64,000 bases of DNA from an uncultured Pseudomonadota bacterium (GTDB lineage: Bacteria > Babelota > Babeliae > Babelales > RVW-14): the NCBI GenBank assembly GCA_964519365.1, contig CAZFHP010000001.1, forward strand, positions 3 to 64,002. The letters are read 5' to 3'. Below the pieces are notes generated by a model. It was given only the letters and a program-made list of their open reading frames with translations. It ran no database searches and was not told the DNA's origin. Below, one piece after another: positions 8,888-60,997 of the stretch (position 1 is its first letter; each line of letters starts with the position of its first letter). A program made the translations under genes and the position numbers.

Positions 8888-8975
8888 AAAATTACTGACT
8901 TAAAAATTTTATCACTTGTGCAAAATTTTGATACATTTAAATTTTATAAAACATGATACCAAAGAAAGTCATGCC

Positions 8976-35566: not shown

Positions 35567-36307
35567 ATGAAAATAATCAATAAACCATTATGTATAATTC
35601 CTGCTCGAGGAAATTCAAAAAGATTTCCTCTTAAAAACATAGCCTTACTTAAGGGCAAACCTCTTGTTAGTTATTCAATAGAAGCGGCCATAGGTAGTAA
35701 TATCTTCGAAACAATTTGTGTTTCTTCAGAAAGTAAAACCGTTCTTAATATCGCATCATCCTATACAAAAGTAGAATGCAAAAAACGCCCCATTCAACTT
35801 TCTTGCGATACCTCAACGGTTAAAGAGGTATGTCTCTACATTATACATAATTTTTTAGAACAAAAAATCATGTATGAAAATTTTGCAGTACTCTTGCCCA
35901 CGAGCCCTCTTCGAGTAAGTACAGATATTCAAAATGCCTACAATATTTTTGAAAAAACAAAAACATCATGCTTGATGAGCATGATCCCCTTCTCTCATCC
36001 TCCTCAACGAGCCATTGTAATAAAAAACAATAAAGCTCAACCATTCTTTGGAATAAAATACATGAAGCGCACACAAGAATTAGAACAACTATATCGCCAT
36101 GATGGATCTATTATTTTTATAAAAACAAAACAATTTTTAGAAAAAAAAGAATTTCACGGATCAAATATTACCCCATTCTTTTTACCAATAGAACGCTCTG
36201 TTGATATTGACAATCCTCTCGATCTAGCCTGGGCCGACTTTTTACTCACAAAACAAATCCTAACAACTCAAAACAAAACATCACATGGTTCTATTGTTAC
36301 GTTATAA
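35567..36307 (+). CDS. acylneuraminate cytidylyltransferase family (CMP-nonulosonic acid synthetase, NeuA/PseF-like)
   Basis: The signature CIIPARGNSKRFPLKNIALLKGKPLVSYSIEAA, plus LLPTSPLR. Confidence 0.8.
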   Translation: MKIINKPLCIIPARGNSKRFPLKNIALLKGKPLVSYSIEAAIGSNIFETICVSSESKTVLNIASSYTKVECKKRPIQLSCDTSTVKEVCLYIIHNFLEQKIMYENFAVLLPTSPLRVSTDIQNAYNIFEKTKTSCLMSMIPFSHPPQRAIVIKNNKAQPFFGIKYMKRTQELEQLYRHDGSIIFIKTKQFLEKKEFHGSNITPFFLPIERSVDIDNPLDLAWADFLLTKQILTTQNKTSHGSIVTL

Positions 36308-37355
36308 GCAAATCCCAACATAATGGAGTTCCCTTTTTAACATCTTGTCTTATTTTCCTTCCCAACAATTGTTCATAATATTTTGGTTGTAACCCATAAC
36401 CAGGTCGAACAACTCTGACACAATCTTTCGTTAAAACCTCTCCAGCCTTAATATCTTTTGACACATACAAAGAACGTTTAAATTTAAGAGATCGTTTTTC
36501 GTCATTCGTTGGTCCATAATGAATATTTCCACGAGCTTTCCAAGCAATTGTCGTTTCTTGAACTAATTGTTTCATTTCATTAGGAGTTAAAGAAAAAGCT
36601 GCATCAATACCAATTTCTTTTGAAAGCGCAAAATGTTTTTCAATAACCGTCGCACCCAAAACAACACTTGCAACAGGCACACCTATCCCTAAGGTATGAT
36701 CTGAGAGGCCTATCTGACATTTAAACAAATCTTGCATATGAGGAATCGTCATAAGATTTGACTCTTTCGGATCTGCAGGATAGTTGCTTGTACACTTCAT
36801 TAAAACTAAGTCTTTACAACCGGCATCTCGAGCAACTCTAACGGCTTCATCAATTTCAGAAATAGTTGCCATACCAGTCGAAATAATTATAGGCTTTCCA
36901 GTTGAAGCAACTTTTTTTATCAATGGCACATGAACATTCTCAAAAGACGCAATTTTATAACAGGATACATTTAACGTCTCTAAAAAATCTACTGCCGTCT
37001 CATCAAACGGCGTACTAAAAACAATAAGACCTAGTTCTTTACATCGCTCAAAAATTGGTTTATGCCACTCCCATGGCGTATGCGCCTTTTTGTACAGATC
37101 ATAAAGCGTATTTCCATGCCATAAATTTTTTTTATCGCTGATATAAAAATCATCACGATCTTTAACATCAAGAGTTATCGTATCAGCGGTATACGTTTGC
37201 AATTTTAAAGCATGAACCCCTGTCTTTGCTGCCGCCTCAACTATTTGCAAAGCACAATCCAATGACTGATTATGATTTCCCGACATCTCAGCAATAATAA
37301 ACGGCGAAAAATCTTTCCCTATTTTCCTACCCCCTATTTCGATTACGTCTGACAT
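36297..37355 (-). CDS. pseI: pseudaminic acid synthase (NeuB family, PseI-like)
   Basis: PFIIAEMSGNHNQSLDCALQIVEAAAKTGVHALKLQTY...YKIASFE...IISTGMA. C-terminal SAF domain. Lies in a Pse gene context. Confidence 0.75.
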   Translation of the reverse strand: MSDVIEIGGRKIGKDFSPFIIAEMSGNHNQSLDCALQIVEAAAKTGVHALKLQTYTADTITLDVKDRDDFYISDKKNLWHGNTLYDLYKKAHTPWEWHKPIFERCKELGLIVFSTPFDETAVDFLETLNVSCYKIASFENVHVPLIKKVASTGKPIIISTGMATISEIDEAVRVARDAGCKDLVLMKCTSNYPADPKESNLMTIPHMQDLFKCQIGLSDHTLGIGVPVASVVLGATVIEKHFALSKEIGIDAAFSLTPNEMKQLVQETTIAWKARGNIHYGPTNDEKRSLKFKRSLYVSKDIKAGEVLTKDCVRVVRPGYGLQPKYYEQLLGRKIRQDVKKGTPLCWDLLIT

Positions 37356-41493: not shown

Positions 41494-42639
41494 TTACTGG
41501 GAAACCTTCTTGATAATACTTACTATCTTTTTGACATCACTATTTTTTAGCATTGGATATAACGGCAATGACAAAGCCTGCTCATAATATTTTTCTGCTA
41601 CAGGAAAGTCACCGTTTTTAAATCCCAACTTTTTATAAAATGGCTGTGTATGTACAGGAATATAATGCACCTGAAGAAACAAATGATTTTTTTGTAGGCG
41701 TTCAAAAATTTCTTTTTTGCTTGATGTAACTTCATCAAAGTTAATTAATAGTGGACACAAATGAAACGACGCCTTTGAATAATCTTTTTCTTTGAGAAAA
41801 GAAAAGCGTTTATCCCCTGATAATAACGTCTTATAACGGTCTACAATCTCTCTTCTACGCTTTACAAATTTATCAAGCTTTTTAAGTTGAGAAATCCCCA
41901 AAGCTGCTTGCATATCTGTTAAGCGATAATTAAAACCCAAATTATGCATTTGATAATACCAAGGACCATCGTTTTGTGTTAACAAAGACGTATCTTTTGT
42001 TACACCGTGTGTTCGTAGCATTAAAAGTTTTTCGTATAAATCTTTATTGTTTGTCGTAATAGCACCACCTTCACCTGTCGTTATTGTTTTAACAGGATGA
42101 AACGAAAACGTCGTCATATCAGAATATTTACACGAACCCACTTTCTGTCCCTTATATTCTGACCCAATTGCATGGGCAGCATCTTCGATAACAAATAAAT
42201 TATGCTTCTTTGCAATAGCTGCTATTTCTTGCATATCACATGATTGCCCCGCAAAATGCACAGGAATAAGAACACGGGTTTTAGAAGAAATTTGTTTTCG
42301 AACTTCTATAGGATCAATATTTGCTGTATCTTGTTCGATATCTGCAAATTTCGGTTGCCCGCCAGAATATAAAATACAATTAGCTGTCGCTAAAAAAGTA
42401 TTTGGTGATGTGATGCCCTCAAAACCCGGTCCTAAATCAAGAGCAAGCATCGCTAGATGTAATGCGGCTGTCCCGTTAGCTACAGCAACAGCATAGCGCG
42501 CTCCTGTATAATCACATAACGCTTGCTCAAATTCTTTTACTTTCGGCCCCTGTGTAAGCCAAGGCGAACGCAATGTCTTTACAATCTCCCAAATATCTGA
42601 CCATGAAATAGATTGTTTGCCATAGGTGTACTTTTTCAC
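41494..42639 (-). CDS. pseC: UDP-4-amino-4,6-dideoxy-N-acetyl-beta-L-altrosamine transaminase (PseC-like, DegT family)
   Basis: YGKQSISWSDIWEIVKTLRSPWLTQGPKVKEFEQAL, DAAHA and FSFHPVKTITTGEGG. The probable GTG start at 42639 overlaps the pseB stop (GTGA). Confidence 0.8.
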   Translation of the reverse strand: MKKYTYGKQSISWSDIWEIVKTLRSPWLTQGPKVKEFEQALCDYTGARYAVAVANGTAALHLAMLALDLGPGFEGITSPNTFLATANCILYSGGQPKFADIEQDTANIDPIEVRKQISSKTRVLIPVHFAGQSCDMQEIAAIAKKHNLFVIEDAAHAIGSEYKGQKVGSCKYSDMTTFSFHPVKTITTGEGGAITTNNKDLYEKLLMLRTHGVTKDTSLLTQNDGPWYYQMHNLGFNYRLTDMQAALGISQLKKLDKFVKRRREIVDRYKTLLSGDKRFSFLKEKDYSKASFHLCPLLINFDEVTSSKKEIFERLQKNHLFLQVHYIPVHTQPFYKKLGFKNGDFPVAEKYYEQALSLPLYPMLKNSDVKKIVSIIKKVSQ

Positions 42640-43613
42640 AAAATTTCTTTCATCTCTGCAATCGTTAACCAATCAGCATTATTGCCACTATGATACTCAA
42701 AATCATGCGCTACAGGATTCCCCTGAATAGGAACTTTTCGAGCTCCATAAAACGTATATTCAGGCTGAACAATGTAATATTTATCTTGCTCTATTGTTCT
42801 GCGAGCATCTTCACGCGTTATCATAACTTCGTGAATTTTTTCCCCGGGGCGAATACCAACATGACGCAATTCAACCGCTGGATTAATTGCTTTAGCAAGA
42901 TCCGTTATTTTCATAGATGGGATTTTTTTGACAAAAAGCTCCCCGCCTTGCATAATATCAAGCGCTTCTAATACCATATACACAGCATCTTCAAGCTTTA
43001 ACCAAAACCGGGTCATATTAAAATCTGTAATCGGAAACTCTTGCGCCCCCGCTTGCATAAGCTCTTTAAAATATGGAATCACAGAACCTCTGCTTCCTGC
43101 AACATTGCCATAGCGCACAACCGAAAATTTCGTATCATGAGTTCCAGAATACACATTGCCTGCAATAAATAATTTATCCGAACAAAGCTTCGTTGCTCCA
43201 TATAAATTTACGGGAGCGCATGCTTTATCAGTACTCAGCGCAATAACTTTTTTGACGTTTTTATCTATAGCTGCATCAATAACATTTTGGGCTCCCAAAA
43301 TATTCGTTTTAACCGCCTCAAAAGGATTATACTCACATGATGGCACTTGCTTAAGAGCTGCCGCATGAATAACAACATCTATCCCATCAAAAGCACGATA
43401 CAGACGATCTTTATCTCGAACATCTCCAATAAAAAAACGTAACTTGGGATTATCTTTAAACTCAGGTTTATTAGACATCACAAATTGTTTAAACTCATCG
43501 CGAGAAAACACAACGATGCGTTCTACGTCTGGATATTGCTCTAAAACAATCTTGATAAAAGCATTTCCAAAAGACCCTGTCCCTCCTGTTACTAAAATCG
43601 ATTTATATTTCAC
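42636..43613 (-). CDS. pseB: UDP-N-acetylglucosamine 4,6-dehydratase (inverting), PseB-like
   Basis: ILVTGGTGSFGNAF...VFSRDE.KQ...GDVRD...VIHAAALKQVP..E.NP.E..KTN..G..NV...STDKA..P.N.YGATK. Confidence 0.85.
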   Translation of the reverse strand: MKYKSILVTGGTGSFGNAFIKIVLEQYPDVERIVVFSRDEFKQFVMSNKPEFKDNPKLRFFIGDVRDKDRLYRAFDGIDVVIHAAALKQVPSCEYNPFEAVKTNILGAQNVIDAAIDKNVKKVIALSTDKACAPVNLYGATKLCSDKLFIAGNVYSGTHDTKFSVVRYGNVAGSRGSVIPYFKELMQAGAQEFPITDFNMTRFWLKLEDAVYMVLEALDIMQGGELFVKKIPSMKITDLAKAINPAVELRHVGIRPGEKIHEVMITREDARRTIEQDKYYIVQPEYTFYGARKVPIQGNPVAHDFEYHSGNNADWLTIAEMKEIL

Positions 43614-43637: not shown

Positions 43638-45560
43638 TTAAACTGTCCAAAACAACAATCTCAAAAGCCTCCCCGCAAACCGATATATCTTTCTAAAAAT
43701 ACCAACGTTATATAGCTCTCGCTGCCTTAACGATTGTGCATGAAATGAAACATAATGATATCCCTGTTTTTTAAATACTTCTAAGCTTTCTAGATCATCA
43801 CTATTTTTCCACATCAAGTGTCGCATTTTTACGTTTTTATTTCGATCAAAAATAAAATTAAAATAAAGCTCATACTCAGACAAACCAGCATAAAGATATC
43901 TATGGTCTATCAGTTTAACAAGAGCAACCCAAGGTTCAAGCTTATGGGTATCCCGAATTGTTCGAAACAAATCTTCTAGCACACATCGCTGAAACAACAT
44001 ATGATGTGTAATCCCAGAGCATTGCTCATATACTTTTCTAAAGCCAGGAATAGCTCTTTTAGCATGCACAAAATATGGCCTATGATATTCTCTTCCCGTA
44101 TTAAAAAGAGCAGCGCCAGAAGACGCCTGAAATCGAACTTTATTCAAAAATATTGTATCAGCATCTAAAATTAAAACGTTTTGAGATATCCCTGGAATAA
44201 CAAATGGAGCATAAAACTTTAGCAGCTGCTGGTATATCCAGCCAACTCGTGATTTCTTATCACAAAGATACTGCTGCGCTTGCTCCAGATCGTCATTAAA
44301 CAAAACCCGTGCAACATCTTGTTTTGTAAATGGAAACTTCTTTTCGTCAAACCAAAAAGCTTTTTCCGAAAACTTTTCAGGAGAAACGACAAACACTTGC
44401 CTGATATTTTCGCCATTCTTTTTTATCCCATCTATAACTCGATCTAATATTCTTGTATCTTTTTTAATACACGGGATAACAACGTCTATAGGCTCATGTG
44501 AGAAATTATATTCACGTTTTTTTTCTTCTTGTGTTTGTTTATCTTGAATATGTTTCTTTTCTATTTTCGTTCGATCTTTTGATAAAAACTTAGTTAATTT
44601 CTTACAGTGAACATGCAAATTATTTATACGATACGTATTATCGTGAAACACAAGATATGGAACTCGCCGGCCTAAAGCATCTATTTTAAATGCATACTTA
44701 AAACGTGCTGGATTAAATAAGCAACTCTCGTTAATAAAACCCGGAACTGGATTCGGACAATTTGTCCCACCTAAATACTGCCCAAGAGCCGCCGCATCAA
44801 AAAGAGATTTAAACTTATCTATGTGAGCAGAATAAGCCTCAGGGCCTTGTGTTTTAAGCCCCGTTGCGCTTTTAAGCAAATACGCTTTGTGATACGCCGC
44901 TGGCACAATTGGCAGCGTTTTTATAAGCTCAGGATATCTTTTTTTATACAAACCTAAAACATGCATATCACTTAAGCGAGACATTATGTTTTTTGCAAAA
45001 AAATCAGCCAAATGCGCCATCGTCTCTTTGTTTGCGACATACACAAAGCCAGGGATACAACGCATATCGTTATCAAACGTTGCGGCAATCCCGGAATAAT
45101 TCTGTTTAAAAACAGAAAGTAATTCGTTTAAATCAAAAAACAAAAGATTGTCGTTCTCTAAATGAAAAACATCTTGAACATCATATTGCAGCATAAAGTC
45201 ATGCAAATACAAAAAGCGCTCAATAGCACAAGCCCCCAACACTCTTCTGTCTCTTTTATCAAGCTTTAAATTTCTTAAAAACAACACGTGTTGCTCTGAG
45301 GGTTTAAGCATTTGCGTAAGAATAACATGCGCATATTCGTGTAAATTATGCGGTTTTTGTAACGCATTATTGTCTGCTATAACATAGATGTCTGTATTGG
45401 GGTTAAACAAACGGGCTTGCCAAACAGCGTCCTCAAGATACGCTGGAAGCGTATCTCCTAAGTGCACAAAAACAAGAACCTGAGCCTGAACAAGCGTAGG
45501 CAAAAGCATAAAGCATAAAATAACTATTCTTTTGAATAAATTTGTTTTGGCGCCCAACAC
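43638..45560 (-). CDS. two-domain putative glycosyltransferase with signal peptide
   Basis: N-terminal signal ILCFMLLPTLVQAQV. The N-terminal domain has IERFLYLHDF...VFHLENDNLLF (GT-A DXD-like). The C-terminal ~300 aa is paralogous to ORF 47126..48106 (EPIDVVIPCIK...GWIYQQLLK.YAPFVIPGIS.NVLI.DADTIFLN). Confidence 0.45.
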   Translation of the reverse strand: MLGAKTNLFKRIVILCFMLLPTLVQAQVLVFVHLGDTLPAYLEDAVWQARLFNPNTDIYVIADNNALQKPHNLHEYAHVILTQMLKPSEQHVLFLRNLKLDKRDRRVLGACAIERFLYLHDFMLQYDVQDVFHLENDNLLFFDLNELLSVFKQNYSGIAATFDNDMRCIPGFVYVANKETMAHLADFFAKNIMSRLSDMHVLGLYKKRYPELIKTLPIVPAAYHKAYLLKSATGLKTQGPEAYSAHIDKFKSLFDAAALGQYLGGTNCPNPVPGFINESCLFNPARFKYAFKIDALGRRVPYLVFHDNTYRINNLHVHCKKLTKFLSKDRTKIEKKHIQDKQTQEEKKREYNFSHEPIDVVIPCIKKDTRILDRVIDGIKKNGENIRQVFVVSPEKFSEKAFWFDEKKFPFTKQDVARVLFNDDLEQAQQYLCDKKSRVGWIYQQLLKFYAPFVIPGISQNVLILDADTIFLNKVRFQASSGAALFNTGREYHRPYFVHAKRAIPGFRKVYEQCSGITHHMLFQRCVLEDLFRTIRDTHKLEPWVALVKLIDHRYLYAGLSEYELYFNFIFDRNKNVKMRHLMWKNSDDLESLEVFKKQGYHYVSFHAQSLRQRELYNVGIFRKIYRFAGRLLRLLFWTV

Positions 45561-45570
45561 AGTTTTAATC

Positions 45571-46497
45571 CTATTTATTGTTTGTTACAGCGTCTATTTG
45601 CTTTTCTTTAATTAAATTCAGCCAATAGCCTGCAAATATTCTTTCTTCTTTAAATGCTTGCGTTTGAATTTCTTCATACTTTTTTTCTAAAAACGCTTCT
45701 GTCACTTCTGACCAATCGTTTACCAAAACTACTGGCATCCCTTCATACATAGGGTCTAATATCGAATGTTTTAAAACAGGAATAGCACCCATGAGTAACA
45801 CTTCCCATGTTCTATGACAGTCAATCCCGTTTCCTCGAGGACAAATAACAAAACGCGCATAAATCAGCTCTTCTAAATATTCTTTGTGAGGCTTGCGAGC
45901 AGCTTTTATGCACCAAGGTTTATCCGCAAAAAACTTTTCAACAACTTTTCGTTCCGGATGCGTTTTTAAAACATTAAGATACGCTAACCATGGTCGCTCT
46001 TTATTTTCCCGATTTTGAACCACATGATCAAAATTCTTAACGCTACCCCACGGCCAATACTGATTTGCTACTCCTATTGGTATTGGAACAAACTTTGGAT
46101 GAACCCGATCACAATTTTGCCCGAACCAGGCAATAAGTTTATCGTCATCTAAATACTTAAAAGAAGCTCCTGGCGCAGCCATATCACCATTATGCGATAT
46201 AAGAATATAGCGATTTGTAATATACGGGTGAACTTCTTTGAAAAAAAACGGAACAAAGTCTACTTTAACAAAAATAGCATCCCCTTCTTTTATAGCATCC
46301 GTATCAAGCGGCATCCGTTTTTCATCAAAAATAAAATCTGCGGCTGCACGAAACGTATCGCCAGAAATATAAGGGGCACTTGAAGATCGCAAGCCCGTCA
46401 TTGATTGTCTACTCTCTTGTCTTTTGGGTGGATAAAAAACTTTTGCCGAAAGACTCCCCACCAAAAGAAAGCTCAATACGCACACAAAATACTTCAT
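45571..46497 (-). CDS. exostosin (GT47)-like glycosyltransferase with signal peptide
   Basis: The C-terminal motif YARFVICPRGNGIDCHRTWEVLLMGAIPVL matches the exostosin-family pattern (F.L.P.G....S.R..EAL..G.IPV). N-terminal part is MKYFVCVLSFLLVGSLSA. Confidence 0.55.
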   Translation of the reverse strand: MKYFVCVLSFLLVGSLSAKVFYPPKRQESRQSMTGLRSSSAPYISGDTFRAAADFIFDEKRMPLDTDAIKEGDAIFVKVDFVPFFFKEVHPYITNRYILISHNGDMAAPGASFKYLDDDKLIAWFGQNCDRVHPKFVPIPIGVANQYWPWGSVKNFDHVVQNRENKERPWLAYLNVLKTHPERKVVEKFFADKPWCIKAARKPHKEYLEELIYARFVICPRGNGIDCHRTWEVLLMGAIPVLKHSILDPMYEGMPVVLVNDWSEVTEAFLEKKYEEIQTQAFKEERIFAGYWLNLIKEKQIDAVTNNK

Positions 46498-46527
46498 GAT
46501 CTTCTACCTTCTTATTTAACCATCTTC

Positions 46528-47115
46528 TTATTTAACCATCGCAACCATAATATTGTCTTTATACTCAGCCTGATCACCACCATCTACATAGGTAATCGTA
46601 TAATCTGTGTTAATTTCTAAAACTTTTGCTTTTATTTGCTCTTTCGTCAAGTAATCAAATAAAACAGTCCCACAACAATGCATGTCGTCTATCAAAATCG
46701 TATGCGTTTTTATCGGATGCTTCTTTATCTGTTCTAACTCTGCTAACAATGGCGTATTATTACCATGCTCTTGAGGCATGCCAGCATGCCCATCAAGCCA
46801 AAATGTTATCGGCTTATCAATCTCTTTAATAACGTCCCAAAGGATAATTCCAGAGTCCCCTTGCCAAATACGTACGTTATCATAATTTCGAAACATCTTT
46901 CGCGCATTGTTTACAAAATCATCTAGAATCTCAACAGAATGAATATCTGCAAAGCCAGCCCTTAAAGCAAATAAAATTCCATTACCTTTTTGCGTTCCAG
47001 TTTCAACAAAAACATCGTTCAAAAATCGTTCAAATCCTTCTGGAGCCATATTTGAATGCAACAATGAAAAAAACATTAAAGCAAACACTAAAAAAAATTT
47101 TCTTGTTTTCAACAC
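46528..47115 (-). CDS. putative SAM-dependent methyltransferase-like protein with signal peptide
   Basis: FVETGTQKGNGILFALRAGFADIHSVEI...FWLDGH...TILIDDMH resembles small class I MTase-fold proteins found in LPS loci. N-terminal part is FFLVFALMFFSLL. Confidence 0.4.
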   Translation of the reverse strand: MLKTRKFFLVFALMFFSLLHSNMAPEGFERFLNDVFVETGTQKGNGILFALRAGFADIHSVEILDDFVNNARKMFRNYDNVRIWQGDSGIILWDVIKEIDKPITFWLDGHAGMPQEHGNNTPLLAELEQIKKHPIKTHTILIDDMHCCGTVLFDYLTKEQIKAKVLEINTDYTITYVDGGDQAEYKDNIMVAMVK

Positions 47116-47125
47116 TTTATCTCTC

Positions 47126-48106
47126 CTATTTGTTTACACCAATAATACCCGCTAATAAAGATCTCCCCTGTCTTGCTAAAAATCTATATAATCGCTTGAC
47201 AAATCGTTGATCTTGTCGCCATTTTCGCCCTCTCAAATAGTGATGAAAAGAAACATAATGACACCCTTGTTTTTTGAACGTCTGCAAACTATCCAAATCA
47301 CCACTATTATCCCACTTTAAATGCCTAATCTTAACGTTACTATTTCGCTCAAAAACAAAATTAAAATATATTTCATATTCAGAAAGAGCAGACCCCCAAA
47401 GCTGTTGTTTGTCGATCTGTTGCACAAGAGCAACCCAGGGTTCAACGTTATGAAGGTTTCTAATCTCGTTAAATAAATCTTCTAAAACACTCCGCTGAAA
47501 TAGCATGTGATGGGCAATCCCTGAATGCTGAGAATATACCCTTCTAAAACCAGGAATAAGTTTTTTTGCATGCTCAAAATATGGCTTATGATGCTCTGTT
47601 CCTGGGTTAAAAAAAGCAGCACCTGAAGACGTCTGAAATCGAACTGGGTTTAAAAATATTGTATCAGCATCTACAATTAAAACATTTTCTGATATTCCTG
47701 GTATAACAAATGGAGCATATAATTTTAACAATTGCTGATATATCCAACCGATTCTTGTTTTCTTATGATTTATGTATTTGTTTGCTTGCTCGCTATCCCC
47801 ATCAAATATGGCATTTGCGACACTTGCTTTTGTAAATGGAAATATAGCTTCATCAATCCATAGAGCATTTTTAGTAAATGGCTCAGAAGAAACAATAAAA
47901 ACATTTCTAATATTGTGTCCATTTTCCCGAATTCCGGCAATCGCAAGGTCAAGCGTACTCATATCACTTTTTATACAAGGAATAACAACATCAATCGGCT
48001 CTAAAGAAAAGTTATACTTTTTTTTAGACGTATCTATTTTAAAAAATAAAATAACACCAATAAAACTAGCTATTGCAAGAATACATAACAAATACTTCCA
48101 TGACAT
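47126..48106 (-). CDS. N-terminally anchored putative glycosyltransferase (paralog of the C-terminal domain of 43638..45560)
   Basis: TM helix YLLCILAIASFIGVILFF, then EPIDVVIPCIKSD...GWIYQQLLKLYAPFVIPGISENVLIVDADTIFLN. Confidence 0.45.
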   Translation of the reverse strand: MSWKYLLCILAIASFIGVILFFKIDTSKKKYNFSLEPIDVVIPCIKSDMSTLDLAIAGIRENGHNIRNVFIVSSEPFTKNALWIDEAIFPFTKASVANAIFDGDSEQANKYINHKKTRIGWIYQQLLKLYAPFVIPGISENVLIVDADTIFLNPVRFQTSSGAAFFNPGTEHHKPYFEHAKKLIPGFRRVYSQHSGIAHHMLFQRSVLEDLFNEIRNLHNVEPWVALVQQIDKQQLWGSALSEYEIYFNFVFERNSNVKIRHLKWDNSGDLDSLQTFKKQGCHYVSFHHYLRGRKWRQDQRFVKRLYRFLARQGRSLLAGIIGVNK

Positions 48107-49221
48107 TACGCATCTACCTTTTTCTTTGCGCTAACACGCTCTTTAGACAAAAACTTTTTTAAGTTCTTCGAATGATACCATTGATAAGTTTTTTCTATCC
48201 CTTCTTGTAAAGAAATAAATTTTGATAAACCCATATCTCTAAGCCGCGAAATATCAAGCAGTTTTTTCGGAGTTCCATCGGGTTTTGAACTGTCATAACA
48301 AATCTCGCCATCAAACCCAACGATATTTTTTATGAGACCTGCAAGATCACGAATCGTAATATCTGTACCTATGCCAATATTAATAAACTCTCCAAGCTCG
48401 TTTGCATTATAATTTTTCATGAGAAAGAACAGCGTTTGAGCGAGGTCGTCGACATATAAAAATTCTCGATACGGTGTACCTGAGCCCCAAAGCGTGATAC
48501 TTTTTTTTGTTATCCCAATTTTTTCAAGCACCGAAGCAAGTGCTTTTGTGTCGTTTTTTTCAAGAATCTTATCTAGTGCATGCCCAACGGGATAACGAGT
48601 TAAATCACACATAATCGCGTCAAAGCTTTCTTCCCGAAGTAATTTTGCTAAGTAAAATTTTCGAATTAAAGCAGGTAAAACATGTGCCGTTTCAAGATTA
48701 AAATTATCGCCCGGGCCGTAAAGATTTGTTGGCATGACAGACATAAAATTCGTTTGATATTGCTCGTTATAATAACTACACAACTTAATTGCTGCTATTT
48801 TTGCAAGCGCATACGGCTCATTTGTTGGCTCAAGAAGGCCTGTGAGTAAGTATTCTTCTTTTAACGGCTGAGGGGCTAACTTAGGATAAATACATGAAGA
48901 CCCAAGATTAAGAAGCTTTTTGACGCCAAATTTATATGCAGCATGAATAATATTCGTAGCAATCATAAGATTGTCATAAATAAACTCTGCTTTATACGTG
49001 TTATTTGCAAGAATCCCGCCAACTTTTGCTGCCGCTAAAAAAACATATTCTGGCTGCTCTTGTTTAAAAAAATTTTCGACAGCTGCTTGATTTCGCAAGT
49101 CGAGCTCTGAAAACGTTCGCGTGATTATATTCGTATATCCAGCCCTTTTTAGCATGCGCATAATAGCTGAACCAACAAGCCCCGCATGTCCCGCTACATA
49201 TATTTTTGAAGACGTTTTCAT
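48106..49221 (-). CDS. fcl: GDP-L-fucose synthase (GDP-4-keto-6-deoxy-D-mannose 3,5-epimerase/4-reductase)
   Basis: IYVAGHAGLVGSAI.R.L...FLAAAKVGGI.AN...AEFIYDNL.I..N.I.AA...GVKKLLNLGSSCIYPK...EPTNEPYA.AK...WGSGTPYREFLYVDDLA. Confidence 0.85.
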   Translation of the reverse strand: MKTSSKIYVAGHAGLVGSAIMRMLKRAGYTNIITRTFSELDLRNQAAVENFFKQEQPEYVFLAAAKVGGILANNTYKAEFIYDNLMIATNIIHAAYKFGVKKLLNLGSSCIYPKLAPQPLKEEYLLTGLLEPTNEPYALAKIAAIKLCSYYNEQYQTNFMSVMPTNLYGPGDNFNLETAHVLPALIRKFYLAKLLREESFDAIMCDLTRYPVGHALDKILEKNDTKALASVLEKIGITKKSITLWGSGTPYREFLYVDDLAQTLFFLMKNYNANELGEFINIGIGTDITIRDLAGLIKNIVGFDGEICYDSSKPDGTPKKLLDISRLRDMGLSKFISLQEGIEKTYQWYHSKNLKKFLSKERVSAKKKVDA

Positions 49222-49236
49222 AACACTCTCTTTATA

Positions 49237-50454
49237 TTACTCACCCATAATATCATGCTGTGCATAGGTAAAATTCTTGTCTTTGCAAACTTTTATTCCA
49301 TCACCGATAGGCTTCATACTATGAAGCTTAAAGTCATAGTCGACCATGATTTTTACAAGCTCATCAAACGTAACTCGCGGCTGCCATGATAATTCTTCCT
49401 GTGCTTTACGTATATCTGCTTGTAAAAACGCTACTTCTGTGGGCCTAAAATATTTTGGATTAATTCCAACCAACGTTTGCCCAACACGGATTAGGTGCTC
49501 CCATCTATCGCTTATTTTTTTTACGACGCCTCGCTCGTTTACCCCTGCTCCTATCCATTCTAATTCAACGCCAACATATGCAAATGCTTTATCAACAAAT
49601 TCACGAACCGTATGGCTTTCTCCCGTTCCTACGACATAATCTCGAGGCGTATCTTGCTGCAGCATAAGCCACATCATTTCAACATATTCTGGTGCGAAAC
49701 CCCAATCACGTCTTGCATCTAAATTACCCAAGTATAATTTTTTTTGTTTGCCCGATAAAATCGCAGCAACCGCTCGTGTAATTTTCCGCGTTACAAACGT
49801 TGGACCACGTCTAGGGCTCTCGTGATTAAATAAAATCCCGTTACATGCAAAAATATCATACGACTCTCGATAATTAATCGTTAGCCAGTAGGCATATAAT
49901 TTTGCAACAGCATACGGACTACGGGGATAAAACGACGTTTGTTCGTTTTGTGGGGCCGGAGAAGAACCAAAGAGTTCAGAAGTAGATGCTTGATATAGTT
50001 TCGTTTTAATCCCGCTACGTTTTATTGCATCAAGCAAACGCGTCACGCCAATGCCTGTTACATTTGCAGTATACTCAGGCATATCAAAAGAAACTTTAAC
50101 ATGCGACTGAGCCCCTAAGTTATAAATCTCGTCTGGTTTTATGTTCCAGATAATATCACTTAAGATCCCAGGGTCAGACAAATCTCCATAATGCAAAAAT
50201 AATTTTGTTTCTTGCTCTAGAGGATCTATATAAAGATGGTCGATGCGTTTGGTATTAAAAGACGAACTACGACGAATAACCCCATGAACTTCATATCCCT
50301 TAGACAAAAGAAACTCTGCGAGGTAAGAACCATCTTGCCCTGTTATTCCCGTAATCAAAGCTTTCTTAGAAATAATATTTTTAGCAGAAACAAAACCAAA
50401 AAAAATAATTATCCCAAAAAGAGCATATCGTGCTATACGAACTATTTTAATCAT
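49237..50454 (-). CDS. gmd: GDP-mannose 4,6-dehydratase with an extra N-terminal hydrophobic segment
   Basis: [42 protein letters not shown]... is preceded by [31 protein letters not shown], which the neighbouring copy lacks. Confidence 0.85.
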
Positions 50455-50473: not shown

Positions 50474-51607
50474 TTAACGAAACTGGGCAACATTATGATC
50501 TGTATACGTAAAGTTTTTGTTCTTACAAACGTTTATCCCATGACCAATAGGTTTTATGTTAGAAAATTTAAGATCATAATCGACCATTATTTTTACAAGT
50601 TCATCAAATGTAACGCGTGGCTGCCACTGTAATTCTTTTTGCGCTTTGCTTATATCTGCATGCAAGTGTTCTACTTCTGTTGGTCTAAAATATTTTGGAT
50701 CAACAGAAACAAGTGTTTGCCCGACGGTTACAATATTTGCCCACGTATTATTTATACTTTTCACGACACCATATTCATTTACACCCGTACCTACCCACTC
50801 AAGCTCTAAACCCGTATATGCAAATGCTTTATCAACAAATTCACGAACCGCATGACTTTCTCCCGTTCCAACAGCATAATCTCGAGCACTGTCATGCTGT
50901 AACATAAGCCACATCATTTCAACATACTCTGGGGCAAAACCCCAATCTCGCTTGGCATTTAAATTCCCCAAATATAACTTCTCTTGTTTGCCGGACAAAA
51001 TTGCAGCGACAGCTCGTGTAATTTTTCTGGTTACAAACGTTGCACCCCGTCTCGGGCTTTCATGATTAAACAAAATCCCGTTACATGCAAAAAGATCATA
51101 CGATTCACGATAATTAACGGTCATCCAGTAGGCATATAACTTTGCTGCAGCATAGGGGCTACGTGGATAAAACGGCGTTTGTTCGTTTTGCGGCGCAGGC
51201 GAAGAACCATAGAGCTCTGACGACGATGCCTGGTAAAACTTCGTTTTAATCCCACTACGCTTAATAGCATCAAGCAAACGAGTCACACCAATGCCCGTTA
51301 CGTTTCCTGTATATTCAGGCATATCAAAAGAAACTTTGACATGCGACTGGGCTCCTAAGTTATAAATCTCATCTGGTTTTATGTTCCAGATAATATCACT
51401 TAAGATCCCAGGATCCGACAAATCGCCGTAATGCAAAAATAATTTTGTTTTTTGTTCTAGTGGGTCAATATATAAGTGATCAATGCGCTGGGTATTAAAA
51501 GACGAGCTTCGACGAATTATTCCGTGAACCTCATATCCCTTGGACAAAAGAAACTCAGCAAGATACGATCCATCTTGTCCTGTTATTCCTGTGATTAATG
51601 CTTTCAT
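50474..51607 (-). CDS. gmd: GDP-mannose 4,6-dehydratase (second tandem copy)
   Basis: [21 protein letters not shown].... High identity to 49237..50454 across the whole enzyme. The track ORF extends to 51628. Confidence 0.9.
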
Positions 51608-51640
51608 CTTTCCCCTTTGTGTTATCAAAAATCTTGTTGA

Positions 51641-53386
51641 TCATATCGCAATATTTTGGGCTTGTCTATTTCTACAATGGCTCACCGAAACATCGATTGT
51701 AAAGCCATCTTCTATCTTGTATACTCTGTCACAACGCTCTATTGTCGTAAGCCTGTGAGCAATCACAATAAGCGTTTTATCTTGACTCACATCATAAATT
51801 TCATCCATGATTTTACTTTCTGTCTCATTGTCAAGCGCAGACGTTGCCTCGTCAAGCACAAGAACATCAGGATCCGCATAAAGCGCCCGCGCGATAGCAA
51901 CACGCTGTTTGTGCCCCCCACTAAGCTTACTTCCCCCCTCGCCCGTTTTTGTTTCCAAACCATCTTTAGACATAAGAAAATCATAAATATGCGCTTTCTT
52001 TAAAGCCATAATAACTTTTTCTTCATCATATTCACGCCCACAAACAATATTTTCAGCAATTGTCCCATCAAATAAATAAATTGTTTGCGGAATATACCCA
52101 ATTTTTCGTCGCCATGATTTTAGGTTTTGCATTGTAAGAAGCTGTTTGTCTATAAAAATTTGGCCTTTTTGTGGATGAAACAACCCCATAACAATATCTA
52201 CTATTGTGCTTTTGCCAGCACCACTTTCTCCGACAAAACCAACTCGTTGCCCTTTGGGAATAACAAGATTTGCATTAGACAAGACGCTATCTTTTTCTGT
52301 ATAAGCAAACGCTATATTTTTTAATTCTATCGTCTTGTCAAATATAATATGATCGTTACCAAGCTGCTCATAATCATGAAGCAAAAACTTATAAAGCGGC
52401 TGCAGAGCATGTTTATTAAACATAATCTGATTATATCCCATGACCATTTTATTAAGCGACGGCATAAAACGATAAAATGCTAACGCGTACATAGAAACTG
52501 TCGGCAAAACAAACGACGCATTGTTATACATAAAAACAACATAGACTATTATGCTCAACAAGATAAAAAAACCTATTGTTTCAAGAACATATCTAGGCAA
52601 CGCCTGCCAAACTGCGTTTACTGTATTTGCTTGAGCTAAACCAAAACGCGCAGATGCATAACGATCAAAAATCGGCTTTGGGTTGGCAACTAGCTTTAAG
52701 AACTTATAATTTCCAAACGACTCCCCATACGTTTTGCCTGCGCGCAATGAAAATTTTTGACGACGTTTGCCAGCCCGAGCAATACGATTAGAAAAGGTCT
52801 TAACGACAAAAAATACTTTTATTGAAAGCAAAAATGACAACACTATGGTCATCTTCCAGTTGACATAAAAAAGCATACAATAGATACATAGAACAGTAAA
52901 AAGCTCCGAAAAAATAGTTAATAGTGCTGATATAACTTGAGTTGCATTTGTTGTATATCCAGAAATTGCTTCACTTATTTTAGCAGAATTTTTTTGAACA
53001 AGGTCTTTATACTTAAATTCTAAATAAATTTTAAAAAGACGTCTTGAAAAAAAATACTCACGCATATAAGCAAACTTATTCATGTAATAAATATGAACCG
53101 TACATAAAATGGCTCTAAAAAAATAAAATACTATAAGTCCAAGCCCCATAAGTACAACAAAATCACTCGGTTTAGCAAAGCCTAGTTTATAATAGAGAGA
53201 GCCTAAGTACTTATTTCTAAGAACGGCTTCAAAATTTGTTGCAATACCAATAAAGACCATAATTGCAGAAATACTCACCGTTTCTATCGCTGAAACAATA
53301 ACCGATGCAAGCAAAAGAATCAGTATTCTTTTTTTATCTTGACGATTAAAAAGTCTTCTGAGCAACGCAACGAGTGATAATTCCAT
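51641..53386 (-). CDS. ABC transporter, fused permease/ATP-binding protein (MsbA/PglK-type exporter)
   Basis: Six N-terminal TM segments. Walker A GESGAGKST, signature LSGGHKQRVAIARAL, Walker B VLVLDEATSALD. Confidence 0.85.
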   Translation of the reverse strand: MELSLVALLRRLFNRQDKKRILILLLASVIVSAIETVSISAIMVFIGIATNFEAVLRNKYLGSLYYKLGFAKPSDFVVLMGLGLIVFYFFRAILCTVHIYYMNKFAYMREYFFSRRLFKIYLEFKYKDLVQKNSAKISEAISGYTTNATQVISALLTIFSELFTVLCIYCMLFYVNWKMTIVLSFLLSIKVFFVVKTFSNRIARAGKRRQKFSLRAGKTYGESFGNYKFLKLVANPKPIFDRYASARFGLAQANTVNAVWQALPRYVLETIGFFILLSIIVYVVFMYNNASFVLPTVSMYALAFYRFMPSLNKMVMGYNQIMFNKHALQPLYKFLLHDYEQLGNDHIIFDKTIELKNIAFAYTEKDSVLSNANLVIPKGQRVGFVGESGAGKSTIVDIVMGLFHPQKGQIFIDKQLLTMQNLKSWRRKIGYIPQTIYLFDGTIAENIVCGREYDEEKVIMALKKAHIYDFLMSKDGLETKTGEGGSKLSGGHKQRVAIARALYADPDVLVLDEATSALDNETESKIMDEIYDVSQDKTLIVIAHRLTTIERCDRVYKIEDGFTIDVSVSHCRNRQAQNIAI

Positions 53387-53500: not shown

Positions 53501-54505
53501 ATGATTGAGAATGTAATTAAAAATAAAAAGATTCTTGTTACTGGCGGAGCAGGGTTTCTTGGAAGCCACTTATGTCAAAAACTTTTAGAGCTTAATAATC
53601 GCGTTATCGCACTTGATAATTTATACACAGGTCGCATGGCCAATCTTGCACACTTACTTGAACATGAAAACTTTCATGTGATCAAACATGATGTTATTAA
53701 TCCCATAAATATTGATATCGATTTAATCTTCAATCTTGCCTGTCCCGCTTCTCCTCCACATTATCAAAAAGACCCGCTATTTACCACAAAAACAAGTGTT
53801 TTGGGTATTCTAAACATACTTGAACTAGCACAAAAAAATAATGCTCGTATTTTACAAGCTTCTACAAGCGAAGTCTATGGGGACCCTGAAAAACACCCTC
53901 AGCCAGAAAGTTATAAGGGCAGCGTTAATCCTATTGGCATTAGAGCATGTTATGACGAAGGCAAACGATGTGCCGAATCACTTATGTTTGACCACAAACG
54001 TATGTACGAAACTGATATTAAAATTGTTCGCATCTTTAATACATACGGCCCACACATGGACCCAAACGACGGTCGTGTCGTTAGTAACTTTATTATTCAA
54101 GCATTACAAAACCAGCCTATAACTATGTACGGCGATGGGAACCAAACACGTTCTTTTTGTTACGTAGATGACCTGATTAACGGGATTGTCTCTATGATGG
54201 GTTCAAAAAAATCTTTTACTGGTCCCGTTAATTTAGGTAACCCAATAGAATTTAACTTACTCGAACTCGCACAACTTATTTTAGATCTTACAGATAGCAA
54301 GTCACAGATTATTTTTAAGCCATTACCTGAAGACGACCCAACACGCAGGCAACCAGATATTAGCTTGGCTAAAGAAAAATTAAATTGGGAGCCTAAAATT
54401 AATTTAAAAACTGGGTTAGAAAAAACAATCCCGTATTTTGAAAAAGTCCTGAGGACATCGTGTTTAGAACATAAAACATATGATGCAAAACAAACAATAC
54501 TATAA
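53501..54505 (+). CDS. UDP-glucuronate decarboxylase (UDP-xylose synthase)
   Basis: [16 protein letters not shown]...N.VIALDN.YTGR..N...[18 protein letters not shown]...[32 protein letters not shown]...IFNTYGP.M...[12 protein letters not shown]. Confidence 0.85.
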
Positions 54506-55821: not shown

Positions 55822-56376
55822 ATGAAGCAATACATAAAAAAAGCATTTTGTACAAAGATATTATTTGCTTTTATCGCCCTTGCGCTTTTTTCTTTACATG
55901 TTTCTTGTAAGCAGGCTCCTGTTAATACTCAAACTCCTGTTCTTCGTGCCGCAAAAACATATGGCCAGGCAACTGTTGCCAATCTTATTAGCGTATACGA
56001 TGGCGATACGTTTAAAGTTAACATACATAATTATCCGGCAATCATAGGCGAAAATATAAGTATTAGAATAAATGGCATCGATACCCCTGAGATAAGAAAC
56101 AAAGATGAATTTCTTAAAGCAAAAGCATACGAAGCTCGTGATTTTGCATATAAGCTTTTAAGCTCAGCACAAAAAATCACACTTAAAAATATGCAGCGAG
56201 GGAAATATTTTAGAATTATAGCAGACGTTATACTTGACGATACCATAGATTTAGCCCAAGAACTAATCAAAGCCCGGCTCGCACAGCCATATGATGGAGG
56301 ACCTCGTCCAAGCTGGGATGGCTTTTTTGATACAAAAAATATGACCCAGCAAAAACAGTTACAACAAACCCAATAA
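55822..56376 (+). CDS. secreted thermonuclease (SNase/micrococcal nuclease-like)
   Basis: Signal peptide, then VYDGDTFKV...IRINGIDTPE...A..A..F.... Confidence 0.75.
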   Translation: MKQYIKKAFCTKILFAFIALALFSLHVSCKQAPVNTQTPVLRAAKTYGQATVANLISVYDGDTFKVNIHNYPAIIGENISIRINGIDTPEIRNKDEFLKAKAYEARDFAYKLLSSAQKITLKNMQRGKYFRIIADVILDDTIDLAQELIKARLAQPYDGGPRPSWDGFFDTKNMTQQKQLQQTQ

Positions 56377-56396: not shown

Positions 56397-57665
56397 ATGA
56401 TAATTAAACATAACAAAATAAATTTTAACGTGTTTTATTTTCTTCTCGTTGTTTTATGTGCTTGTTTTACATGTCATGCACAACAAAACACGTGCCAGTT
56501 TAACTACACGTTCAAAACAGAAGTAGTTTATAACGACACACACGGCTTTGAAGTTTCTGATACAATCGAACGCTTTGCTCGAGAACAAAATAAGTACTTA
56601 AACAAGTCACGTTATTTTGATTCAAAATTTATTCGCAAACCAAAAGAAGTTCGCAAATATCACACAAAACAAAAGCATAATACAGGTGACGTTGGGCAAT
56701 TAATAGATATTTACACAGAAGATGGACAATGGGTCCCATGTACATATTTCGACAGAAATAGCGATACACTTTTAATCGTCGGCGAGGGTTTTACCAACGA
56801 ACGGGAAGTTATGACACCGTTCGTTGATATGTTTGATTGTGACATTGTCTTATTTGACTTTAGAGGCCAAGGCTATAAACCATTTGATATAAAAAATCCT
56901 GAAACCTGGCCATTAGACCTGGCACAAGTAAGCTTTGGCATGGACTCTGAAATCTGCACACTGGGACAAGATGAAGAAAAAGACGTATTTGCTGTTATCG
57001 ATTATTTTAAAACGAAAAAAAACTATAAGCATGTTAATGGCGTTTCAGTGTGCTACGCATCATTTATTTTCTTAAAAGCAGAAGCGCTCAGGCCAGGGCT
57101 TTTTGATAAAATTGTCGTCGATGGTTGTTGGATTTCGGTACCCCTAATTGTTGAAAAATTAAAAAAAGACCCCAAAATGATCTTTAGCCCACAATACGGT
57201 GGATGGTCCAAAACGTGGCCTTGTTCTCAAAAATGGTGCGGCGACTTGTTGGAATTTTTAGCAGACGCCGTCTGGAAGTTACCATTTAACAACGTGTCTC
57301 TTTTAGATTATCTGCCAAAAATTAAAAATACCCCCGTGTTATTTTTCTATGGCAAAGACGATCTTATGGTAACCAGAAACGAATTTGAGCAGCTATGGGA
57401 AGCTCTTGGAACTCGTGAAAAAGTTGCGATAATTACATCAAACCCACATGTACGTAATCACCTTAAGCAAAAAGAGTTTTATAAACTCGCATGTGATCTA
57501 TTTTTCGATCTTTCTCCTGCACAATGCGTTGAGCACTTGAAAAGCATACATAACGTAGTAGACTATCACACAGAAAAGTTATTGAAATACAAAGGAAACA
57601 AAAACCCTTCGAGACGCTCCCCTTCGCAAGCTCAGGATTCGCTCCTCAGGGCGAACGGGAGATAA
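56397..57665 (+). CDS. secreted alpha/beta-hydrolase fold protein
   Basis: Signal FYFLLVVLCACFTCHA. Blocks LLIVGEGF, VLFDFRGQG, NGVSVCYAS and PVLFFYGKDDLMV are typical of alpha/beta hydrolases. The last ~20 codons are GC-rich. Confidence 0.55.
   Translation: MIIKHNKINFNVFYFLLVVLCACFTCHAQQNTCQFNYTFKTEVVYNDTHGFEVSDTIERFAREQNKYLNKSRYFDSKFIRKPKEVRKYHTKQKHNTGDVGQLIDIYTEDGQWVPCTYFDRNSDTLLIVGEGFTNEREVMTPFVDMFDCDIVLFDFRGQGYKPFDIKNPETWPLDLAQVSFGMDSEICTLGQDEEKDVFAVIDYFKTKKNYKHVNGVSVCYASFIFLKAEALRPGLFDKIVVDGCWISVPLIVEKLKKDPKMIFSPQYGGWSKTWPCSQKWCGDLLEFLADAVWKLPFNNVSLLDYLPKIKNTPVLFFYGKDDLMVTRNEFEQLWEALGTREKVAIITSNPHVRNHLKQKEFYKLACDLFFDLSPAQCVEHLKSIHNVVDYHTEKLLKYKGNKNPSRRSPSQAQDSLLRANGR

Positions 57666-60920: not shown

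Positions 60921-60941
<21 letters not shown>
60132..60941 (+). CDS. truB: tRNA pseudouridine(55) synthase TruB
   Basis: The catalytic block GHTGTLDDFAQGLL and YSALKHKGKPLY. The 3' end runs 21 nt into the antisense tRNA-fMet gene. Confidence 0.85.

Positions 60942-60997
<56 letters not shown>

Follow-up and report, generated by a model that had tools for sequence, protein, structure and literature searches.

In textbook bacterial glycosylation, nucleotide-sugar-dependent enzymes are cytoplasmic and only lipid-linked intermediates cross the membrane. The 64-kb stretch of contig CAZFHP010000001.1 analyzed here (hereafter, the window) raises the question of why a set of such enzymes, including several glycosyltransferases and a GDP-mannose 4,6-dehydratase (Gmd), begins with hydrophobic N-terminal leaders. 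With modest confidence, we favor the answer that these leaders are genuine Sec export signals, so that Leloir-type enzymes would operate in the periplasm or farther out, fed by host donors.

The window, a metagenome contig (JGI 3300009008, Ga0115649_1001955), has a GC content of ~36% and encodes bacterial housekeeping genes and tRNAs. All named database matches of its biotin carboxylase (57706-59223) come from Candidatus Dependentiae, Babeliales or TM6, at ~50% identity, and the window was therefore assigned to that phylum; on the basis of this one protein, we treat the organism as a divergent member of the Dependentiae (TM6). The Dependentiae are obligate intracellular parasites of protists.

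Leader-bearing sugar enzymes in the window

A tightly packed minus-strand array at 43.6-53.4 kb starts with a PglK/MsbA-type ABC exporter, followed by Gmd-A, Gmd-B and a GMER-like reductase, and continues with a DUF6492 protein, a 195-amino-acid (aa) protein, an A075L-like glycosyltransferase and a 640-aa two-domain protein. The module enzymes, the exporter and the S-adenosylmethionine (SAM) methyltransferases that share their N-terminal feature are as follows.

43638-45560, minus strand: two-domain protein, with a leader, an N-domain family region (residues ~27-330) and a DUF6492 region (~355-610)
45571-46497, minus strand: GT114 (A075L-like) glycosyltransferase (phmmer against PBCV-1 A075L, 8avq and 8q8i, E 7.1e-31)
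46528-47115, minus strand: probable class I SAM methyltransferase of 195 aa (hhalign against a Methyltransf_24 family of the related loci, 95.7%, E 1e-8)
47126-48106, minus strand: predicted DUF6492 GT-A-like enzyme (PF20102, 33.4 bits; gathering threshold 22.9)
48106-49221, minus strand: GMER, GDP-fucose synthase-like epimerase/reductase, leaderless (Pfam Epimerase, 1.4e-63)
49237-50454, minus strand: Gmd-B, GDP-mannose 4,6-dehydratase (TIGR01472, 552 bits; cutoff 415)
50474-51628, minus strand: Gmd-A, GDP-mannose 4,6-dehydratase, leaderless (Pfam GDP_Man_Dehyd, 2.5e-145)
51641-53386, minus strand: PglK/MsbA-type ABC exporter (NCBIfam PglK 537 bits, below the equivalog cutoff of 1000 and still the top-scoring family; MsbA 279)
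53501-54505, plus strand: UDP-xylose synthase-like decarboxylase (UXS), leaderless here, with leader-bearing homologues in related loci
7730-8887, minus strand: GT11-like paralog 1, with a 21-residue N-terminal anchor
6589-7719, minus strand: GT11-like paralog 2, with a 24-residue N-terminal anchor and a weak GT11 match (E 0.0095)
5420-6574, minus strand: GT11-like paralog 3, with a 21-residue N-terminal anchor; flank charges +4 (N)/+1 (C)
4552-5448, minus strand: 298-aa protein that follows the GT11-like paralogs immediately downstream and has a hydrophobic leader; flank charges +4 (N)/-4 (C)
15826-17109, minus strand: SAM methyltransferase of the Methyltransf_23 family; its leader is signal-peptide-like, with flank charges +4 (N)/0 (C)
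17695-18600, minus strand: SAM methyltransferase paralogous to 15826, with a 13-residue core followed by KKKKKQHRK

The heuristic classifier with which we called leaders looks, within the first 45 residues, for the start of an uncharged run of 8 or more residues whose Kyte-Doolittle mean over 10 residues is 2.0 or higher. Among control proteins, it flagged none of 119 ordinary Gmds and 3 of 119 biotin carboxylases. In the window, 22 of the 55 open reading frames (ORFs) of at least 150 aa were flagged (~40%), which is close to the 44% of coding sequences with signal peptides in Chromulinavorax (PMC6561590). An earlier note on this DNA had pointed out hydrophobic N-termini on many of the enzymes listed above. 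A Kyte-Doolittle scan found all the ORFs that it named at those positions on the minus strand, each with a hydrophobic segment, and the methyltransferases at 15.8-18.6 kb indeed both start with a 13-residue hydrophobic core. The feature is not general to nucleotide-sugar enzymes, as the note had implied, given that Gmd-A, GMER, UXS and the entire nonulosonic-acid/GT2/GT4 set are leaderless. When the module enzymes and the two methyltransferases are taken together, 10 of 13 carry leaders. Of the 18 classical sugar enzymes, which lie at 25-43 kb and 54.5 kb, only 1 was flagged (Fisher p = 6e-5). The lone classical match (31107-32198) is probably a false positive, resembling the first Rossmann strand behind a mis-set start. 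In other words, leaders mark one gene set in the window, and not nucleotide-sugar enzymes generally.

By our own heuristic, the leaders of ORFs 43638, 45571, 46528, Gmd-B and 15826 have a basic n-region, an h-region of ~7-15 residues and small residues at -3/-1. The leader of 43638-45560, MLGAKTNLFKRIVILCFMLLPTLVQA, occupies codons 1-26 (nt 45483-45560) and ends in VQA ahead of Q; depending on the pipeline, this ORF begins at M1, giving 640 aa, or at M18, giving 623 aa. The signal-peptide-like leaders of 45571-46497 (MKYFVCVLSFLLVGSLSA; codons 1-18, nt 46444-46497) and 46528-47115 (MLKTRKFFLVFALMFFSLLHS; codons 1-21, nt 47053-47115) are followed by K and N, respectively, and that of Gmd-B (codons 1-24, nt 50383-50454) is again followed by K. 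In 5420, 6589, 7730, 47126 and 4552, the h-region is 18-24 residues long, which exceeds the Sec type I range. Thus, the leader of 47126-48106, MSWKYLLCILAIASFIGVILFFK (codons 1-22, nt 48041-48106), has an 18-residue anchor-like core, and the paralogs 5420, 6589 and 7730 start with MKKK, MRKR or MKKR, followed by 21-24 uncharged residues. No twin-arginine motif was found in the leaders, and Tat export of NAD(P)-binding enzymes was set aside for this reason.

Judged by alignment, ORF 45571 is a clear homologue of the GT114 xylosyltransferase A075L, a chlorovirus beta-xylosyltransferase; its own use of UDP-xylose would be hinted at only indirectly, by the UXS-like gene at 53501-54505. Its residues 92-298 align to 62-279 of 8q8i, and the equivalents of A075L Asp73, Asn148, Arg158 and Arg208 are all identical in the HMMER alignment, with a 2-residue tag offset allowed for. 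In A075L, Asp73 is the catalytic base and the other three residues bind the donor (PMC11571054). The 195-aa protein at 46528 showed no Pfam match. The AF2 model of ORF 47126 (pLDDT 92.7) has helices at residues 3-21 and 294-322, and D146xD148 is invariant in DUF6492. In Foldseek, the model best matched the Stealth-type phosphotransferases CpsY and GNPTAB, followed by GT6, GT8 and LARGE1; the score against 8j2n was E 5.7e-10 (TM 0.49/0.58), with 7s6n and 9bgf next, at 13-16% sequence identity. Giant-virus Stealth proteins also match DUF6492, and no Stealth Pfam family was detected in DUF6492 domains at E <= 0.01. The model suggests that DUF6492 is a GT-A-like nucleotide-sugar enzyme.

The two-domain ORF 43638 carries a second DUF6492 domain at its C-terminus (PF20102, 27.1 bits; threshold 22.9), and its N-terminal half represents a widespread separate family of ~325 residues with an invariant HxExD (the N-domain). 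The AlphaFold pLDDT of this domain was <50, with only three sequences covering it. The family gave no match in a PDB profile search or in Pfam scans of 15 members, and its comparison with DUF6492 by hhalign was not significant, though HLENDxxL aligned with the DXD motif. At the C-terminus, both DUF6492 proteins have a basic amphipathic helix of ~30 codons (47126-47230, ..FVKRLYRFLARQGRSLL..; 43638-43730, ..FRKIYRFAGRLLRLLFWTV). This helix is missing from most DUF6492 homologues, the closest and viral ones included, which suggests an extra membrane attachment particular to the window organism.

The GT11-like paralogs did not reach the PF01531 gathering threshold (best score 15.6 against 23.9 bits, for 6589 only), and PDB sequence and profile searches with the family gave nothing useful. 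Their family profile matched that of bona fide GT11 in hhalign (96.9%, E 2e-10, 229 columns), and residues G47, R48, G50 and D51 (an N-terminal G-x-x-G-N/D) and H198 and R200 (H-x-R) are invariant. By profile-profile comparison only, the family would belong to the fucosyltransferase superfamily.

Gmd-A and Gmd-B share 83% of their residues; identity is 71-73% with ordinary bacterial Gmds and only 49-63% with other leader-bearing Gmds. Because the pair is closer to each other and to ordinary Gmds than to the leader-bearing ones, Gmd-B stems from a separate duplication and its leader is of independent origin. Both copies are under purifying selection, which is strong for Gmd-B (dN/dS 0.08 between the two, dS 1.18). 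Gmd-A likely starts at the ATG giving MKALITG (~nt 51607; 377 aa), while in Gmd-B 30 extra residues precede the canonical KALITG. In Gmd-B, the canonical ATG is mutated to AAG, the upstream ATG lies 19 nt past the Gmd-A stop, and an alternative in-frame TTG start is present at codon 33; the protein is called as 405 aa in three assemblies. A hydrophobic extension was found in none of the 119 closest Gmds in a database of 5.8 billion proteins (p = 1e-9 against the Gmds of module loci). The N-terminus of GMER is MKTSSKIYVAGHAG, and the space upstream of it is too small for a leader.

The module in intracellular bacteria and giant viruses

We scanned one genome per GTDB species with a DUF6492 alignment and obtained 564 relatives, the best 79 of which (loci L005-L083) were used for the locus counts. 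These 79 loci come from Chlamydiota (Rhabdochlamydiaceae, Parachlamydiaceae, Simkaniaceae and Waddliaceae), from Dependentiae/Babeliales/TM6 and from a few metagenome-assembled genomes labelled Pseudomonadota or Verrucomicrobia. Within 10 kb of DUF6492, we counted 46 GT114-like ORFs in 32 loci and 44 GT11-like ORFs in 32 loci, as well as methyltransferases in 13 loci, UXS-like proteins in 11, Gmd in 8 and GMER in 3; about 40 ORFs of the N-domain family are also present in the related loci. Cluster representatives further include GT2, GT4, GT6, GT10, GT11, GT25, GT90, GT92, FUT8-like and Fringe-like glycosyltransferases, FkbM and Methyltransf_24 methyltransferases, a sulfotransferase, a GH130-like protein and a UDP-glucose dehydrogenase, so that the related loci are in effect sugar-enzyme islands. 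No nonulosonic-acid genes were found in the 79 loci. Loci L066 (7265-8461), L044 (15961-16791) and L051 exemplify a leader-bearing UDP-glucose dehydrogenase, a sulfotransferase of the 3'-phosphoadenosine 5'-phosphosulfate (PAPS) type and a Golgi-like glycosyltransferase set.

Approximately 90% of the module members in Chlamydiota and Dependentiae carry short signal-peptide-like leaders, which are thus conserved across phyla. In the 79 loci, leaders were found in 74 of 86 DUF6492 proteins, 43 of 46 GT114-like proteins, 35 of 40 N-domain family members, 44 of 45 GT11-like proteins and 12 of 13 methyltransferases. Database DUF6492 proteins, whose N-termini were set by gene callers, showed a leader in 109 of 119 cases, and inspection of 15 bona fide GT11 members showed a leader-like N-terminus in every one. 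The median core is 10-15 residues long, with a mean charge of +1.2 to +2.8 in the N-flank and -1.0 to +0.6 in the C-flank. Small -1 residues abut the mature N-termini: the 12 methyltransferase leaders end just ahead of the conserved N(I/M)GPxGF, with xxA before it, and in the N-domain family xxA precedes ..SIVFVHIG. This anatomy suggests a cleavable Sec signal peptide across families, and not a membrane anchor. The 'anchors' of the earlier note are hydrophobic N-termini as described, but most of them look like short cleavable signal peptides.

Enzymes that make nucleotide-sugar donors also carry leaders in the related loci, including 5-6 of 6 true Gmd homologues, both GMERs, the three best UXS-like matches and the UDP-glucose dehydrogenase cluster representative. 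To our knowledge, Gmd, GMER, UXS and UDP-glucose dehydrogenase are cytoplasmic everywhere else. The earlier note had called for comparing the frequency of the feature in orthologs from free-living bacteria; none of the 119 ordinary Gmds has a leader, and module relatives in intracellular bacteria mostly do.

The same DUF6492 alignment finds 201 relatives at 33-41% identity on giant-virus contigs, many of them giant-virus metagenome-assembled genomes (loci L084-L162). These viral loci (for example L092, 4277-5855; L097, 4142-5732; L106, 4160-5759) also encode N-domain family and GT114-like proteins, often within 5 kb. Some contigs carry the same fusion of N-domain and DUF6492 as in ORF 43638, without a leader. 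The viral proteins begin at the catalytic domain (MFDIVIPI, MNIVLVHIGE), and leaders were found in only 3 of 80, 0 of 27 and 0 of 29 members of the three families (p = 4e-30, 5e-17 and 1e-14 against the bacterial copies). The shared genes suggest that giant viruses and the intracellular bacteria of protists have exchanged them. Enzymes encoded by a virus are made in the host cytoplasm itself, and a bacterium has to bring its copies through its own inner membrane before they can reach host metabolites. Leader presence follows exactly this difference.

Proposed export and its alternatives

If the leaders act as Sec signals, they would carry a toolkit for fucose/xylose glycosylation, namely the GT114 enzyme, DUF6492 proteins, N-domain family, GT11-like paralogs, methyltransferase and one Gmd copy, out of the cytoplasm, to the periplasmic face, the periplasm or farther via type II secretion, where the enzymes would use nucleotide sugars, SAM and NAD(P) of host origin. 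Most family members would have a short cleavable signal peptide abutting the first catalytic-domain strand. In the window, the GT11-like paralogs and ORF 47126, with cores of 18-24 residues, would probably remain uncleaved at the inner membrane, and the DUF6492 proteins and GT11-like paralogs are probably membrane-retained rather than released. We infer translocation by the leaders, the final location of the enzymes, the donor source and the acceptor. A route for such export has been described in these bacteria: host-directed proteins of Dependentiae carry Sec signal peptides, and type II is the only secretion system found (PMC4378268, PMC6561590). Most ankyrin effectors of Babela have signal peptides, with type II again the only secretion system (PMC4378268), and in Chromulinavorax a very large set of proteins is exported with signal peptides and outer-membrane vesicles are shed (PMC6561590). 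In addition, host SLC35D2 imports UDP-glucose into the chlamydial inclusion, where the secreted glycogen synthase GlgA uses it (PMC4829429). The interpretation in the earlier note is supported in part: its explanations that place the enzymes outside the cytoplasm are favored by the comparative evidence, namely the family-wide leaders, the leader-bearing donor enzymes and the leaderless viral copies.

Several points weigh against export. The leader calls rest on a heuristic classifier, and leaders are so common in Dependentiae genomes (~40% of the window ORFs) that their presence alone is weak evidence. ORFs in the related loci are longest-ORF calls, which may have spurious N-termini, although the gene-caller sets agree. 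In the window, Gmd-A, GMER and UXS are leaderless beside leader-bearing transferases, which leaves the bacterial cytoplasm able to supply GDP-fucose and UDP-xylose. Sec-exported NAD(P)-dependent enzymes of the short-chain dehydrogenase/reductase type must acquire their cofactor at the destination, which is plausible only if host metabolites arrive there. The C-terminal basic amphipathic helices of the DUF6492 proteins are typical of peripheral membrane binding. Finally, the positive-inside rule, by which the earlier note placed many catalytic domains outside the cytoplasm, clearly gives that orientation for only about 5 of 11 proteins. Flank charges are clearly N-in/C-out in 5420, 4552, 15826, 43638 and 46528. 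They are balanced (N/C) in 6589 (+3/+4), 7730 (+3/+3) and Gmd-B (+3/+3), and they lean in the opposite direction in 45571 (+1/+3), 47126 (+1/+2) and, strongly, 17695 (+1/+6), where the KKKKKQHRK behind the core argues against export.

Some of these points would fit a different topology, in which the N-termini are cytoplasmic-face tethers, that is, uncleaved or re-entrant (monotopic, PglC-like) segments on the inner leaflet. A lipid-linked glycan would then be built from cytoplasmic GDP-fucose and UDP-xylose and flipped by the PglK-like transporter. We regard this as rather unlikely overall, though it is the strongest competitor to export and a serious one for this organism. It would account for the leaderless Gmd-A, GMER and UXS in or beside the same array, for the PglK-like flippase at the array head, for the positive charges on both sides of several window leaders (including the basic run behind the core of 17695), for the 18-24-residue cores of four window proteins and for the amphipathic C-terminal helices of both DUF6492 proteins. 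The N-terminal helix of PglC was itself long mispredicted as membrane-spanning. Gmd-B, 6589 and 7730 are basic on both flanks, and the long anchors show no Ser-Pro break, a criterion for PglC-like topology. However, cores in the families at large are mostly 10-15 residues long, too short for spanning or re-entering a bilayer, and have neutral or negative C-flanks and small -1 residues. Moreover, the PglK-like gene is not a regular companion of the module, and those classical window enzymes that feed a flippase pathway are free of tethers. Repeated gain of tethers by Gmd, GMER, UXS and UDP-glucose dehydrogenase, in intracellular bacteria only, would also be odd.

A periplasmic process fed by the bacterium itself would reconcile leaderless donor synthesis with leader-bearing transferases: Gmd-A, GMER and UXS would make nucleotide sugars in the cytoplasm, and a dedicated transporter, for instance the ABC protein encoded first in the array, would carry them out. 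This is improbable. The earlier note had named that transporter as a candidate nucleotide-sugar exporter, and the analysis does not support this: the protein scores highest with PglK, a flippase of lipid-linked oligosaccharides (537 bits; MsbA 279), and it has only distant relatives (~30% identity), found in 5 of the 79 related loci. Those loci share no conserved family of polytopic transporters, and donor-synthesis enzymes with leaders of their own in other genomes would make an exporter unnecessary. We know of no bacterial nucleotide-sugar exporter. We consider it least probable of all, and by a wide measure improbable, that the leaders are artefacts, with T-rich sequence ahead of true starts read as Phe/Ile/Leu-rich pseudo-leaders. 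The low GC content, the in-frame TTG of Gmd-B, the M18 start of ORF 43638 in one pipeline and the longest-ORF calls would suit such an explanation. Yet, one doubtful case apart, the 18 classical enzymes are free of pseudo-leaders although they lie in this same AT-rich DNA, independent gene callers keep the leaders, and the spacing is tight (19 nt from the Gmd-A stop to the Gmd-B ATG), the canonical Gmd-B ATG now being AAG. Hundreds of homologues also have leaders with basic N-flanks and small -1 residues, which are absent from AT-rich viral copies.

Export of the enzymes can also be compared with known systems. The closest in gene content is capsid glycosylation by chlorovirus PBCV-1, which encodes the GT114 founder A075L together with a viral GMD and GMER; ORF 45571 is a clear A075L homologue, and chloroviruses likewise pair A075L with fucose/xylose donor synthesis and a methyltransferase (PMC11571054, PMC5408694). 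The PBCV-1 enzymes differ in being soluble, beginning at the catalytic domain and acting in the host cytoplasm, while the bacterial copies are leader-bearing. The secreted proteins of Babela massiliensis and Chromulinavorax destructans, from the same phylum, have the same kind of N-terminal signal and were published as host-directed export (PMC4378268, PMC6561590). The cargo described in Dependentiae differs, however, and comprises ankyrin-repeat proteins, proteases, nucleases and ubiquitin/SUMO-modifying enzymes; in the papers that we searched, we did not find a set of Leloir glycosyltransferases with nucleotide-sugar-converting enzymes among it. In the glycogen metabolism of the Chlamydia trachomatis inclusion, GlgA is likewise a nucleotide-sugar-dependent transferase that acts outside the bacterium on a host-supplied donor (PMC4829429), but it is exported by type III secretion without a Sec leader, in a single storage-polymer pathway and without extracellular nucleotide-sugar interconversion.

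The comparison with Golgi type II enzymes made in the earlier note holds for the order of basic N-terminus, hydrophobic segment and catalytic domain, but not for the stem region, which is missing. The repertoire of the related loci is also Golgi-like (GT6, GT10, GT11, GT90, GT92, FUT8-like, Fringe-like and sulfotransferase). On the other hand, the conserved domain starts only 2-10 residues past the hydrophobic segment, most leaders are too short for anchors, and the eukaryotic Gmd, GMER and UDP-glucose dehydrogenase are cytosolic. The window further resembles the PglK/Wzk pathway of Campylobacter and Helicobacter (undecaprenyl-PP assembly and ABC flipping), in that a PglK-like exporter heads the array and classical leaderless GT2/GT4 and nonulosonic-acid genes lie alongside. 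In contrast, the transferases of that pathway are cytoplasmic and without export signals, and the PglK-like gene of the window does not co-occur with the module elsewhere.

Neighboring genes and biological meaning

Downstream of the array, at 36-43.6 kb, lie PseB/PseC/PseH/NeuB-type nonulosonic-acid genes, all leaderless, and the region at 25-34 kb holds more GT2, DegT, GT4-like and methyltransferase genes. Several genes of this classical sugar region are duplicated, namely GT2 genes with near-identical N-termini (25260-26186 and 32117-33052, minus strand), NeuB-type synthases (34527-35558, plus strand, and 36297-37355, minus strand) and DegT aminotransferases (26183-27334 and 41494-42672, minus strand). 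These pairs suggest either two nonulosonic-acid pathways or a segmental duplication. One further glycosyltransferase gene lies next to the GT11-like paralogs.

8916-10352, plus strand: polytopic GT-C glycosyltransferase, PMT_2/ArnT-like (PF13231, 1.6e-7), with eight transmembrane-like segments

This gene is divergent from the anchored paralogs, 29 nt apart, and no homologue of it was found in the 79 related loci. PMT_2-type GT-C enzymes work on the periplasmic face, and the head-to-head arrangement fits an envelope-directed process. An AAA ATPase with a signal-peptide-like N-terminus (18693-20330, plus strand) recalls the signal-peptide-bearing AAA-ATPase family of Babela massiliensis (PMC4378268). 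The leader-bearing ORFs 4552-5448 (minus strand) and 56397-57665 (plus strand) have no Pfam or NCBIfam match, and the latter adjoins a leader-bearing SNase-like nuclease (55822-56376). Two 184-aa paralogs starting with MFK(I/V)NYRIT.. (493-1047 and 1887-2441, plus strand) lie on either side of ORF 1117-1863, and tRNA-Met (60920-60996, minus strand) shares ~20 nt with the truB ORF (60132-60941, plus strand), at the 3' end of the latter.

The catalytic families discussed here (GT114, Gmd, PF20102 and the GT11-like superfamily) and the Sec/type II route of these phyla are already known. In the literature, we found no prior description of DUF6492, of Dependentiae/Babelota glycosyltransferases or of chlamydial fucosyltransferases with signal peptides. 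What appears to be new, and for which we likewise found no description in the literature, is a conserved toolkit, shared with giant viruses, in which transferases and nucleotide-sugar-converting enzymes are both export-tagged in intracellular bacteria. A broader picture, which we offer tentatively and hold to be possible rather than probable, is that protist-dwelling bacteria (Chlamydiota, Dependentiae and some others) run Golgi-like Leloir glycosylation outside their own cytoplasm. Interconversion by Gmd, GMER, UXS and UDP-glucose dehydrogenase, together with methyl- and sulfotransferases, would take place in the periplasm or a host-facing compartment, with host GDP-mannose, UDP-glucose, SAM, PAPS and NAD(P) as direct inputs. 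These bacteria would have the toolkit in common with giant viruses, and the Sec leader would be the adaptation that makes it usable for a walled-off bacterium.

This idea is directly testable, since the cultivable amoeba symbionts Protochlamydia and Parachlamydia carry module genes. It would also provide hypotheses on function and location for DUF6492, for the ~325-residue N-domain family and for the bacterial GT114 members. If it is true, exported Leloir transferases and donor-converting enzymes would form an arrangement different from the textbook one and tied to life in eukaryotic cells. Such an arrangement would be a new way of parasitising host metabolites, and it would link the glycan machinery of giant viruses to that of intracellular bacteria living in the same protist hosts.

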